NCBI GenBank assembly: GCA_963664815.2
Contig: CAXXHB010000003.1
Coordinates: 1,184,001 to 1,248,000, forward strand
Reading direction: 5' to 3'
Origin: Spirochaetota bacterium
GTDB taxonomy: Bacteria; Spirochaetota; UBA4802; UBA5550
Length of the DNA: 64,000 nt
Shown here: positions 4,501 to 48,839 of the stretch, piece after piece
Layout: every line of letters starts with the position of its first letter
Position numbering within the stretch: the stretch's first letter is position 1
Position numbers and translations under genes: made by a program
The notes under the pieces: model-generated
The model's database searches: none
What the model was told of the DNA's origin: nothing
Seen by the model: only the letters and a program-made list of their open reading frames with translations

Positions 4501-5664
4501 TCAGAAAGCTGCAATTAGAATTGTTTCAATTTCACTTTTAGAGATTTTTCTTGGCGTATTATTTATAAACGGATAAGAATAAGCCTGATCTGCAATTTCT
4601 TTAAACTGATTCTGCTTGATTTTAAATGTTGATAACCTTTGGGGAATTTCAATATCAATTTCCAGTTTTCTAACTGCTTCTACTGCCTTAATTGCCGCTT
4701 CAATGACTGTAATGTCTTTTACATCCTCTCCCATAACCTTTGACATCTGAACATATTTTCCTGGTGAGGTTGTAAGGTTGAATTCCATAATATGGGGGAT
4801 TATTACTGATATTGCAGTTTCCATATCTATATCTGTTTTTGATGAAATGGCGAGTGCAAGAGCCAGCGAAACAGAAAGGAAAGCAACAGAAAATGCAATT
4901 CCCGACATAACTGAAGCTGTTGATAAATTAACTCTGGGGGCAATGTTTTTTGGTTCCTTATAAGCAACCGGGAGATTTCTGAAAATAAGATCTATTGATT
5001 TCAGGGCATATGTATTAATAATATCGTTATTCATTGTTGAAATTACAGATTCAGTTGCAATTGCCAGTGAGCTGGTTGAAGTTTTAAGAATTTTGTCTTC
5101 TGATATCAAAAGTGATAGTTCGGGATCTACTATTGAAGCTAAAGGATAAAGGTTAAGATTATAGTAAACCTGGTTTGTCAGTTTATGGATCTCTTTTATG
5201 TAAAACATTGGTGAGATCTCAAATCCGAAAGAGGGGTAAGCCGGCATTGTTATATACCTGGCTGGAGGATTTAAAGTTTCCTTGCTGTAAAGTGCATCAT
5301 AACAAAAAATATAATTATTAATAAGTAGAGCAATTGCCTTGGCAGAAGTTAAAGATTCTATACCTCCAAAACCTATTATAAGGTCACATTTGGTTTTTTT
5401 TATAAATGATACAGCAATATCAATATCTTCGGTGGTCGGATTACCGGGTAGTTCATCATAAATAATACATCCGAGATTTACATTTTTAAAAAACCTGTAA
5501 ATCTCTGAAAGAGTTTCATGGTATAATTCAAAATCTGTTGTAACAGTTACAATAACAACTCTGGAACCATATTTAGATGAAATTTCAGCAGCATTTTTAC
5601 TGATACCCTGCTTTATATATATTTCTGTTGGAAGATGAAATTCAGGTGATATAATATCGCTCAA
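4501..5664 (-). CDS. Iron-containing alcohol dehydrogenase-fold protein lacking the metal ligands (probable pseudoenzyme)
   Basis: F.LPTEIY, CDLIIGFGG, IVDPEL, IPHIMEFN and IPQRL mark the family; the Asp/His ligand positions are substituted. Confidence 0.85.
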   Translation of the reverse strand: MSDIISPEFHLPTEIYIKQGISKNAAEISSKYGSRVVIVTVTTDFELYHETLSEIYRFFKNVNLGCIIYDELPGNPTTEDIDIAVSFIKKTKCDLIIGFGGIESLTSAKAIALLINNYIFCYDALYSKETLNPPARYITMPAYPSFGFEISPMFYIKEIHKLTNQVYYNLNLYPLASIVDPELSLLISEDKILKTSTSSLAIATESVISTMNNDIINTYALKSIDLIFRNLPVAYKEPKNIAPRVNLSTASVMSGIAFSVAFLSVSLALALAISSKTDIDMETAISVIIPHIMEFNLTTSPGKYVQMSKVMGEDVKDITVIEAAIKAVEAVRKLEIDIEIPQRLSTFKIKQNQFKEIADQAYSYPFINNTPRKISKSEIETILIAAF

Positions 5665-5763: not shown

Positions 5764-6054
5764 TTATCTTAAAAGAAAGTTCGCTATTTTATCGGCTACC
5801 ATTTCAAGCATTTTATTATCATCGAAATTGTATGTGCCATTATCGATTCTCATTTTAATATCTTTTACTCTTTCAATTCTTGTATCCGGGGAATCTTTTA
5901 CAACTTGTGCACTTCGGGCAATATCCGCCGCCTGTTTTCCCTCATTTGATATTTGTATTGAATCACTTTTATATTCCTCTTTCTTCCCTGAAACAGGTTT
6001 GCTCTTTTTTGTGTCTGTGATATTATTTATGTTACCAATTTTTTCTATTACCAT
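5764..6054 (-). CDS. flgM: Anti-sigma28 factor FlgM
   Basis: DSIQIS.EGK, PDTRIERVKDIK.RIDNGTY, VADKI; sigma28 promoter upstream. Confidence 0.92.
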   Translation of the reverse strand: MVIEKIGNINNITDTKKSKPVSGKKEEYKSDSIQISNEGKQAADIARSAQVVKDSPDTRIERVKDIKMRIDNGTYNFDDNKMLEMVADKIANFLLR

Positions 6055-47381: not shown

Positions 47382-47774
47382 ATGATGAAAAAATTTTTAG
47401 TAATTTTTATAGTCATGATTGCAGGTTCCTCTTTCCCTGGTGAAAATGAAAAAGTACTCCTTGCTGATATCATTTCCGACATTGATAATTACAAAAATAA
47501 AGTTGTTACGTTAAATTTGCGGCTGAAATATATAGACAGAGTTTTTGAAAAAATAGTGTTTTATGATTCTGAAAATAATGATATTGAATTTGATATAACC
47601 GGCATAACTAAGAAAAAGGTGCTGTCAGATAATATCATAAATATACATGAAGGAATGATGTACAGAATAAGGTTTACTGTAATAGGTGCCGGGAATCTTG
47701 GGGGACTAACTGGTGACTTACTTGAATTTACACCGGTTATCTTTGATAAAATTCCTGTTGAAGAGACAAAATAA
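47382..47774 (+). CDS. Exported hypothetical protein (OB-fold-like)
   Basis: Signal peptide; DIISDIDNYKNKVVTL and a beta-rich body. Confidence 0.7.
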   Translation: MMKKFLVIFIVMIAGSSFPGENEKVLLADIISDIDNYKNKVVTLNLRLKYIDRVFEKIVFYDSENNDIEFDITGITKKKVLSDNIINIHEGMMYRIRFTVIGAGNLGGLTGDLLEFTPVIFDKIPVEETK

Positions 47775-47875
47775 AGAAAGCAGAATAGCTGGGCGGCTAT
47801 CCTGCCTTCTTCTTTTGCAGTGTTAAGTTAATAATATGGTAAGAACGGGAGGGAATTACCATATCATCACTTATA
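47768..47875 (-). ncRNA. Candidate sigma28-dependent small regulatory RNA (~105 nt) with anti-SD loop
   Basis: Sigma28 promoter directly upstream; 18-bp stem (47824-47842 / 47856-47873) with loop UUCCCUCCCGUUC; terminator stem (47780-47805) plus U-rich tail. G-U pairs close both stems only on the minus strand. Confidence 0.75.
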
Positions 47876-47881
47876 CAAATT

Positions 47882-47909
47882 TTATCGGCTGGAGAGTTTA
47901 AAAACTTTA
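47882..47909 (-). promoter_or_regulatory. Sigma28 promoter with no downstream ORF
   Basis: Minus strand TAAAGTTT-N12-GCCGATAA; both boxes match consensus. Confidence 0.85.
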
Positions 47910-47924
47910 ATTTTTTTGAGGAAA

Positions 47925-48839
47925 ATGACAGGAATTATTATAAAAGTTTATGGAAGGTTTTATACGGTTTTATTTGATGGAGGAGAAATTAATTCGGTAC
48001 TCCGCGGAAAAATGAAAACCAGTCAGAGTAATTATTCCAACCCGGTAGCAGTGGGAGATGTAGTTGATTTTTCGATCAACAGAGAGGGTCTTGGGACTAT
48101 TGAACATGTAAAAGAGAGAAGTAATACATTTACTCGTAAGGATGGAGTGCGCTCGCGGGAGGATATAATTGCCTGTAATCTGGATCAGGTTGTTGCAGTT
48201 CAATCTTTCACAAATCCCCGGTTGAATCTCAGGTTTGTAGACAGAATTATCATTCGAAGTAAAAGAGGGAATATTCCTGTTCTTTTATGTGTAAATAAAT
48301 CTGATCTTATGGAAAAGGGTGAATCAGCCTATATTCGTTCATATTATAAAGGAGCTGATATTAATATTAAATTTGTAAGTGCACTGACCGGTAGAGGGAT
48401 GAGTGAATTTAAAAAAGAGATTACAGAAAAAAGATCTTTACTCATAGGCTATTCAGGAGTAGGAAAATCATCACTTTTTAACCGGATTTATCCGGGACTT
48501 GATTTGAAGATAAACGAAGTTTCAGAAAGTTCAGGCAAGGGTAAACATACTACAACAAACGTCAAAATGGTGAGAGCCGATGATGGCACTGAACTTATTG
48601 ATACACCCGGAGTCAGGGAATTCGGACTTGTTGATATAGAACCTGATGATCTTGGTAATTATTTTAATGATTTCAGGGAGGCAGCCTTAAGCTGTCGGTT
48701 CAGACCATGCACTCATGATCATGAGCCAGGATGTGAAGTTAAAAGGCTGGTTGAAGATGGCATAATACATGGGGAGAGGTATATATCTTATCTGAATATT
48801 TTGTACTCTATACAGGAAAATATTAAAAATCAATATTAG
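47925..48839 (+). CDS. rsgA: Ribosome small-subunit-dependent GTPase A
   Basis: Circularly permuted G motifs NKSD, GYSGVGKSS, GKHTTT, DTPG; zinc finger C.F..C.H.HEPGC. Confidence 0.96.
   Translation: MTGIIIKVYGRFYTVLFDGGEINSVLRGKMKTSQSNYSNPVAVGDVVDFSINREGLGTIEHVKERSNTFTRKDGVRSREDIIACNLDQVVAVQSFTNPRLNLRFVDRIIIRSKRGNIPVLLCVNKSDLMEKGESAYIRSYYKGADINIKFVSALTGRGMSEFKKEITEKRSLLIGYSGVGKSSLFNRIYPGLDLKINEVSESSGKGKHTTTNVKMVRADDGTELIDTPGVREFGLVDIEPDDLGNYFNDFREAALSCRFRPCTHDHEPGCEVKRLVEDGIIHGERYISYLNILYSIQENIKNQY

Follow-up and report, generated by a model that had tools for sequence, protein, structure and literature searches.

Small RNAs (sRNAs) of the sigma28 (FliA) regulon have been described in Escherichia coli, where MotR, FliX, FlgO and UhpU are derived from untranslated regions (UTRs) and control flagellar synthesis post-transcriptionally by base pairing, according to the account given in PMC10578931. 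Here we describe a predicted RNA gene of a comparable kind in a spirochaete. It lies in a 64,000-nucleotide (nt) stretch of contig CAXXHB010000003.1 of a Spirochaetota bacterium (assembly GCA_963664815.2), the whole of which is referred to below as the window, on the minus strand of the gap between an open reading frame (ORF) on the plus strand (47382–47774) and rsgA. The RNA resembles those of E. coli in its transcription with the sigma28 regulon, which is predicted from its promoter. The four E. coli RNAs are UTR-derived, whereas the spirochaete RNA is intergenic and stand-alone, with a promoter and a terminator of its own. The phylum and the target logic differ as well, and relatedness was judged by scans of Rfam, which were negative. 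In Campylobacter jejuni, CJnc170 (FlmR), which has the paralogue CJnc10, is an unprocessed stand-alone FliA-dependent sRNA of 47 nt (PMC11187230; PMC4626219). Its overexpression shortens the filament and reduces motility, and its targets were proposed among RpoN-dependent genes (PMC11187230). Negative feedback on the filament is also what we propose for the spirochaete RNA, which comes from another phylum; of the two RNAs, only that of the spirochaete has a C-rich anti-Shine-Dalgarno loop and a 3' domain that is invariant.

Helicobacter pylori RepG and Staphylococcus aureus RNAIII and RsaE use the exposed, C-rich loop of a hairpin as the seed for pairing with G-rich Shine-Dalgarno regions. The proposed seed of the spirochaete RNA is of this type, and the RNA is set apart from them by the negative Rfam scans; to our knowledge, RepG, RNAIII and RsaE are not under sigma28 control and are unrelated to it in sequence. 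Spirochaete periplasmic flagella contain several flagellins in a defined ratio, and, according to PMC9481697, the post-transcriptional setting of this ratio is poorly understood beyond CsrA-FliW control of flagellin translation, which is described for Bacillus subtilis and Borrelia burgdorferi and proposed for Treponema denticola. As in CsrA-FliW control, the spirochaete RNA would act at the Shine-Dalgarno region of a flagellin and couple synthesis to assembly; the effector of CsrA-FliW is a protein binding GGA motifs, whereas here it would be an RNA. No sigma28-dependent or flagellar sRNA of spirochaetes was found in the literature, of which subscription journals and supplementary sRNA tables could list one.

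We read the locus as a stand-alone non-coding RNA gene of ~105 nt that would be driven by FliA and whose loop would block G-rich Shine-Dalgarno sites, and assign to this reading a probability of about 0.6. That the gene is a real sRNA gene with a FliA-type promoter is highly likely from its sequence and conservation. Anti-Shine-Dalgarno pairing is slightly favoured as its main mode of action, and a flagellin is proposed only tentatively as its direct target.

Promoter and folding of the predicted RNA

The predicted features of the RNA gene are given below in window coordinates.

47911–47917, minus strand: A-tract adjoining the −35 element on its upstream side, possibly a UP-like element
47902–47909, minus strand: −35 element TAAAGTTT of the sigma28 (FliA) type; T[ACT]AAG kept in 84 of 88 loci
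47882–47889, minus strand: −10 element GCCGATAA of the sigma28 type; CCGA kept at its distance from the hairpin in 84 of 88 loci
47768–47876, minus strand: predicted sRNA of ~105–109 nt, with a probable start at ~47876–47872 and a 3' end at the U-run at ~47770
47824–47873, minus strand: hairpin 1 with 18 pairs and one bulge, presenting the C-rich loop (minimum free energy (MFE) fold, covariation)
47843–47855, minus strand: 13-nt apical loop UUCCCUCCCGUUC; its core CCCUCCC (47853–47847) is the proposed anti-Shine-Dalgarno seed
47813–47823, minus strand: single-stranded linker of 11 nt with a nearly invariant CACUGC (alignment of 90 homologues)
47773–47812, minus strand: terminator hairpin of 17 pairs with the loop CGCCCA and a U-rich tail to 47768; intrinsic terminator

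The sigma28 consensus consists of TAAA(G) at −35 and (G)CCGATA(A) at −10, with about 15 bases between TAAA and GCCGATA. The promoter of the RNA (47909–47882, minus strand) reads TAAAGTTT-N12-GCCGATAA, and this consensus flagellar promoter, the hairpin, the C/U loop, the linker and the terminator were all located where the initial annotation had placed them. Within the window, TAAA-N14-17-GCCGATA occurred three times against 0.09 expected; the 5.2-Mb genome contained 29 occurrences. Of the 88 homologous loci with enough upstream sequence, 84 had T[ACT]AAG-N14-17-CCGA at a constant spacing from the hairpin. Among the remaining four, three have TCGA instead of CCGA and one is an extra gene copy in the genome G055. 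A- or T-rich runs preceded the −35 element in most of the 88 loci.

The gene flgM served as a positive control for the sigma28 consensus of the lineage. Upstream of it, the window's genome (G000) has TAAAGATTTGAC-N8-GCCGATA, and of 30 relatives, among which all seven families of the class are represented, 28 have a motif of the sRNA type 29–34 nt ahead of the start codon of flgM; the other two have TCGATA. Judged by its sequence and position, this motif is the classical autoregulated flgM promoter. One added spacer base is the single difference between it and the sRNA promoter. The mapped sigma28 promoter of T. denticola flaB2 has CCGATAA at −10 and TTAA at −35 in the account of PMC9481697. 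By eye, no canonical sigma28 motif was seen upstream of the five FlaB-type flagellin genes in the window's genome. FliA is encoded at G000:C3:1177193-1177864, ~6 kb before the window (TIGR02479, 285 bits). Hfq (1678–1866) and FlgM (5764–6054, minus strand; PF04316, 41 bits) are both encoded within the window, as had been noted earlier, and CsrA is also encoded in the genome.

Two further observations concern similar motifs. The 3' end of flgM (5790–5815, minus strand) contains a second match to TAAA-N15-GCCGATA, directed towards a 387-codon ORF (4501–5664, minus strand). This match is possibly an internal sigma28 promoter or else due to chance, because GCCGATAAA at this place codes for Ala-Asp-Lys of FlgM. 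Near-identical paralogous segments of ~140 nt were present at G000:C2:309740-309880 and G000:C3:3208073-3208215, with diverging flanks; both carry a TAAAA-N14-GCCGATA match as well as the hairpin TTCCCGAAGA...TCTTCGGGA. They may represent a repeat or the terminus of a mobile element.

The minus strand of the locus folded at −40.2 kcal/mol (z −8.8), and none of 200 shuffled sequences folded as well; for the plus strand these values were −29.1 kcal/mol, z −2.8 and 4 of 200. The terminator scan gave 17 pairs on the minus strand vs. 6 on the plus strand. The MFE structure contains five G-U pairs, two in hairpin 1 and three in the terminator, where four had been counted originally. Their use as indicators of the strand holds, since they become A-C mismatches on the plus strand; G-U pairs are frequent throughout the family, and the sense strand folds better in 75 of the 90 homologues. 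In 95 distinct homologues, the pair 102-129 was GC in 55 and GU in 37 cases and the pair 107-124 was AU in 42 and GU in 38, which confirms the strand.

Covariation was scored on a model-based alignment of these 95 sequences, which leans towards the given structure; slid and shuffled alignments were used as controls. The model-based alignment was needed for hairpin 1 because RNAalifold on a plain MAFFT alignment recovered the terminator only. Standard pairs were formed in 91.5% of cells, compared to 81.6% in shuffles and 37–51% with the pairing partners slid. Double changes were present in 27 of the 35 pairs, a number reached in none of 500 shuffles. For the stem of hairpin 1, covariation in relatives had been suggested as a check of the prediction: compensatory changes were found in 17 of its 18 pairs, with 87.7% of cells paired. 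The inner pairs of the 3' hairpin never varied and its outer pairs covaried; this invariance is partly a product of the way homologues were collected. A divergent homologue in the genome G025 (66 bits) had compensatory stem changes in the 3' hairpin and kept the loop GCCCA.

The loop core CCCTCC was invariant in all 90 aligned homologues, and the flanking T, C and G were conserved in at least 90%. Thus, both the promoter and the loop, on whose conservation in homologous regions the prediction was to be judged, have been kept. By a strict test, in which all six letters of the core have to be unpaired in the MFE structure, 21 of the 90 homologues passed; among the remaining structures viewed, two added pairs close an 8-nt loop and CCUCCC stays unpaired. 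In the linker, C58 and G62 were invariant and A59, C60, T61 and C63 at least 90% conserved. The CACUGC sequence may be a second seed or a protein contact.

DNA contigs of the metagenome run X2 broke exactly at the terminator hairpin (47780–47810), with loose ends resembling the sRNA of another relative. Assemblies are fragmented at the terminator because co-occurring relatives share an identical stretch there.

Conservation and distribution

With the 171-nt region as a BLAST query, the RNA part without its flanks was recovered from all seven genomes of the genus, at 83–89% identity, and from most of the family. In the remaining families of the order, at least the 3' hairpin was matched. An exact-pattern scan with GGCNGNATAGCCGCCCAGCTAT over one genome per species returned 85 stretches. 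Among the 80 records listed, 77 were labelled as spirochaete or Leptospira-type metagenome-assembled genomes and three were unlabelled, with no cultured isolate; these names bear out the description of the genome as spirochaete-like. A covariance model of 126 positions and 35 pairs (R1) was built from 90 distinct aligned homologues (alignment A1). Its sole sense-strand match in the window's genome was G000:C3:1231761-1231879 (119 bits), which corresponds to window positions 47761–47879 on the minus strand. A second match with 34 bits was the opposite strand of the palindromic terminator. R1 matched 113 of the 122 genomes of the class, with 77 of 78 high-quality genomes, 47 of 50 genera and all seven families represented. 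By this distribution, the predicted RNA gene is a single-copy core gene across a whole uncultured class of Spirochaetota. The genome G055 carried a second copy (G055:C77:4145-4270, locus L060) 31 kb from the first on the same contig, lacking a recognisable sigma28 motif as well as the rsgA and 130-aa neighbours.

In Rfam release 15, the window region produced only chance-level matches at E values up to 10, the best on the element being ctRNA_p42d with 18.4 bits vs. a threshold of 50. The scan of seven diverse homologous loci at E values up to 0.5 gave nothing on the RNA, and ten outgroup loci gave only tRNAs at the gathering score. The earlier expectation that no Rfam family would match was therefore correct for all three sets of loci, and with the literature also negative, no described family matching the RNA was found. 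From sequence, it very probably represents a previously undescribed sRNA family of a known kind, the sigma28-dependent flagellar sRNAs. In a relative where rsgA is 485 nt away, a sub-threshold match to TD-2 RNA (RF03162; L029:1393-1478, minus strand; 33.5 bits vs. 48.7, E 0.11) adjoins the sRNA on its upstream side.

Across the phylum, the strict pattern TAAAG-N15-17-CCGATA-N15-42-CCCTCCC was found in 48 of 401 sampled genomes, and its reversed control gave two matches. Outside the class were 14 of the 48 genomes, seven of them among 50 genomes of the family f21. The f21 loci fold into an RNA of ~85 nt with a sigma28-type promoter, a hairpin with the loop (U)CCCCUCCCACCCA, a small hairpin GCCUGAUGGGC and a terminator. 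A second covariance model (R2; loci L199-L206, L411-L461), built from eight outside-class loci (alignment A3), matched 143 of 151 f21 genomes, including 98 of 101 high-quality genomes and 22 of 24 genera, and this family is not in Rfam. In f21, a sigma28-type motif was located directly upstream in 19 of 20 sampled loci from 19 genera, and the stem covaried. Weaker R2 matches were obtained in f23 (4 of 6), f11 (2 of 2) and others, and in the window's class there was one weak match only (G040, E 0.007). Conversely, R1 had a single match outside the class, in G126 (48 bits), with promoter and loop. The strict pattern was absent from the samples of f15 (0/75), f19 (0/38) and f14 (0/17), where R1 found nothing either; R2 was negative in the f19 and f14 samples and gave two weak matches (E ~0.002) among 18 in f15.

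The outgroup RNAs of the same architecture occur in unrelated gene neighbourhoods, which, together with the existence of the R2 family, argues for action in trans. A predicted class-wide core gene together with an architecturally equivalent family elsewhere gives the finding a wider scope than the initial annotation had proposed. Cultured strains of f21 are probably available, because this family has many single-contig genomes.

Candidate target, proposed mechanism and rival explanations

The loop core CCCUCCC is complementary to GGGAGGG, which has 343 copies in the window's genome; 27 of these precede the start codon of an ORF of at least 80 codons. About ten of the 27 are at likely true gene starts, and two belong to motility genes. 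The candidate target is a FlaB-type flagellin whose protein starts with MRINHN (G000:C3:3799818-3800627; Flagellin_N, Flagellin_C). Its ribosome-binding site reads AAGGGAGGG throughout the class, and its orthologues (71–96% identical) are clearly separated from paralogues (~62%). GGGAGGG was positioned 4–10 nt before the start of this gene in 69 of 70 loci, comprising all 30 from the family of the window's genome and 39 of the 40 from the six remaining families. The flagellin paralogue next to it had AAAGGAGUG in all 27 loci and GGGAGGG in none. As read from the sequences, the duplex with the flagellin reaches 8–10 bp in other families. The single exception, G063 with GGGGGGG, is also among the nine genomes without an R1 match. 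The outgroup genome G173 has a divergent RNA that shares the promoter and the loop but differs from R1 in stem and terminator. This RNA is complementary to 11 nt in the leader of one flagellin (−21.6 kcal/mol), and the other two flagellins of G173 have ordinary AAGGAGGA sites. The flgM gene was rejected as a target: by eye, the loop has no complement in the ribosome-binding region of this gene (AAGGGUUA).

The leaders of the two flagellins have peculiarities of their own. That of the MRINHN flagellin (G000:C3:3799818-3800780; loci L303-L332) is conserved and apparently structured over at least 130 nt and forms a hairpin with the loop CAUGAUG, where the paralogue has an AAGGA-type loop. The leader of the adjacent flagellin carries the hairpin GGCAAGGAAGCC, which we take to be of the CsrA-site type. 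The two paralogues may be under different translational regulators. No sigma28 promoter was found at a consistent position within 150 nt before the MRINHN flagellin; the seven regular-expression matches in 30 loci were at implausible or inconsistent places.

In the proposed mechanism, export of FlgM would release FliA, and the RNA would be made together with the late flagellar genes. Its CCCUCCC loop would pair with G-rich Shine-Dalgarno sequences and block ribosome entry. The MRINHN flagellin would be the first target, so that filament composition or flagellin dosage would be tuned after hook completion. The invariant 3' domain probably also contacts a protein, for which Hfq, encoded nearby, is one candidate.

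Several results weigh against this reading. The sRNA promoter has 16 bases between TAAA and GCCGATA, compared to 15 in the flgM promoter of the same genome. In the genus of the window, the duplex with the flagellin is limited to the 7-bp core (−15.7 kcal/mol), with both flanks mismatched, and any strong Shine-Dalgarno sequence is partly complementary to CCUCC. Since both flagellin leaders are highly conserved, the conservation of GGGAGGG alone is not specific. The flagellin leader was read in four genomes without an R1 match (G063, G094, G073 and G076); the latter three, which are 76–89% complete, keep GGGAGGG, and the joint loss in G063 is therefore an anecdote. In f21, complements of the extended loop (12-mer with one mismatch, five genomes) stayed at the control level except for the RNA gene itself. 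The best true 5' match in the window's genome, a 12-nt perfect complement at a chemoreceptor gene (G000:C3:1135197; 4HB_MCP, MCPsignal), was rejected because the site is not conserved in the genus: among eight genomes, the exact string occurred in G000 only, with one similar string in G004. Many other top matches to the complement were internal to genes. As to expression, a look-up of the sequencing runs recorded for the locus showed none of RNA. A 245-nt contig from a wastewater run labelled RNA-Seq, where the RNA label is itself a guess, aligned to 47769–47875 with seven differences, a weak hint that cannot show strand, ends or level; the locus was also present in contigs of three DNA runs. 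Finally, the linker and terminator are nearly invariant over ~40 nt, which is unusual for a purely base-pairing sRNA and indicates another or an additional function.

This last point leads to the main rival, a protein-binding RNA that would bind or titrate a protein through the invariant linker, the 3' hairpin and/or the C-rich loops, with mRNA pairing secondary or absent. We consider it improbable as a full explanation, yet the most serious of the alternatives. Sequence constraint of this kind on a terminator is atypical of base-pairing sRNAs: the inner pairs and the loop of the 3' hairpin never vary among the 95 homologues, CACUGC is nearly invariant, and G025 alters the stem while keeping the GCCCA loop. 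Two potential protein partners, Hfq and CsrA, are both encoded. However, part of the 3' invariance stems from homologue collection, and the hairpin is under a further constraint because it also terminates the convergent 130-aa gene described below. Moreover, the terminator of R2 is ordinary and variable and its C-rich loop is kept, so that the loop appears to be the shared functional part. RNAs that act as CsrA sponges (CsrB/RsmZ type) expose several GGA motifs in hairpin loops. A sponge of this type was rejected here: the loops UUCCCUCCCGUUC and CGCCCA are C-rich and contain no GGA, the sole GGA lying inside the terminator stem. The preferred reading, pairing of the loop with Shine-Dalgarno sites, has room for a protein contact of the 3' domain as mentioned above.

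The remaining alternatives depend on the neighbouring genes:

47382–47774, plus strand: convergent 130-aa gene without a family; N-terminus resembling a signal peptide, stop codon within the sRNA terminator
47925–48839, plus strand: rsgA (ribosome small-subunit GTPase), divergent; Pfam RsgA_GTPase, 161 bits

In 83 of 89 loci, the 130-aa gene, which is conserved across the class and shares the sRNA terminator, immediately followed the RNA gene in convergent orientation, with its stop codon within a few bases of the terminator. Its product has no Pfam or NCBIfam family, and the protein atlas returned only weak OB-fold-like leads, below 0.9. On the upstream side of the RNA, rsgA was present in divergent orientation in 77 of 86 loci, 43–1141 nt away, and was not found in the other nine. 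In the window, its GAGG ribosome-binding site (47918–47921) is 9 nt from the sRNA −35 element.

Next after protein binding comes cis-antisense regulation of a transcript running from the 130-aa gene into rsgA, e.g., by duplex formation and RNase III cleavage, which would couple the expression of rsgA or the 130-aa gene to flagellar status. Between the two genes, the plus strand showed no sigma70-like site, and the terminator is weaker on this strand (6 pairs vs. 17); rsgA is therefore possibly transcribed by read-through, to which the RNA would be antisense. The preserved synteny of both genes and the closeness of the rsgA ribosome-binding site to the sRNA promoter also fit. We nevertheless regard cis-antisense action as unlikely. 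A purely cis-antisense RNA would need no invariant loop, whereas all 90 homologues keep CCCTCC; the spacing to rsgA ranges from 43 to 1141 nt, many loci having other DNA inserted; and neither gene accompanies the outgroup RNAs that share the promoter and the loop (no tblastn matches in 15 loci). Still less credible is an element of the plus strand, i.e., an rsgA leader or a 3' UTR of the 130-aa gene with a GGGAGGG loop, beside which the minus-strand promoter would be incidental. The plus strand does form two hairpins (−29.1 kcal/mol, z −2.8), one of which would display the Shine-Dalgarno-like GGGAGGG in its loop. But 75 of 90 homologues fold more stably on the minus strand, the frequent G-U pairs become A-C mismatches on the plus strand, and the U-tail is on the minus strand family-wide, the plus-strand tail being not U-rich outside the genus. 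In 84 of 88 loci the sigma28 motif keeps its orientation and distance, and the spacing to rsgA varies. A cis-regulatory leader of rsgA was rejected on the same grounds: instead of a fixed position on the sense strand, the distance spans 43–1141 nt, and structure and G-U pairs favour the opposite strand.

The least probable explanation, and a very remote one, is a tiny protein-coding gene. The gap had been described as free of ORFs; it does contain a 37-codon ORF on the plus strand (47713–47826) and a 21-codon frame through the RNA on the minus strand, but neither start nor frame is conserved. The minus-strand frame begins with an ATG in the 5' arm of hairpin 1, present in 71 of 90 homologues and absent from 19. 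Relative to CCCTCC, this ATG is in frame 0 in 44 homologues, in frame 1 in 4 and in frame 2 in 13, the rest being mixed; indels in the linker are not multiples of three, and the substitutions follow the pattern of paired RNA. The window sequence has no ribosome-binding site upstream of this ATG. A non-coding RNA acting through its loop thus remains the reading that we prefer.

Implications for flagellar regulation in spirochaetes

Across the class, the sRNA gene is conserved to a degree comparable to that of a housekeeping gene. The RNA families R1 and R2 together provide a concrete candidate for the missing riboregulator of flagellin synthesis, with a precise pairing, CCCUCCC vs. GGGAGGG, that can be mutated. 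The two covariance models add RNA families that are currently missed by annotation pipelines. Considering the different loops in the leaders of the two flagellin paralogues, the CsrA system and the sRNA may divide these paralogues between them.

A more speculative possibility, which we regard as doubtful at present, is that R1 and R2, along with look-alikes scattered over other families, go back to a single ancestral FliA-dependent RNA. All of them would silence, via CCCUCCC, the FlaB paralogue with the GGAGGG site and the CAUGAUG leader and in this way switch filament composition after the hook, and R1 would have gained its 3' domain for a dedicated protein. If true, this module would give the periplasmic flagellum of spirochaetes its first conserved riboregulator, and cultured, genetically tractable spirochaetes would allow a test.

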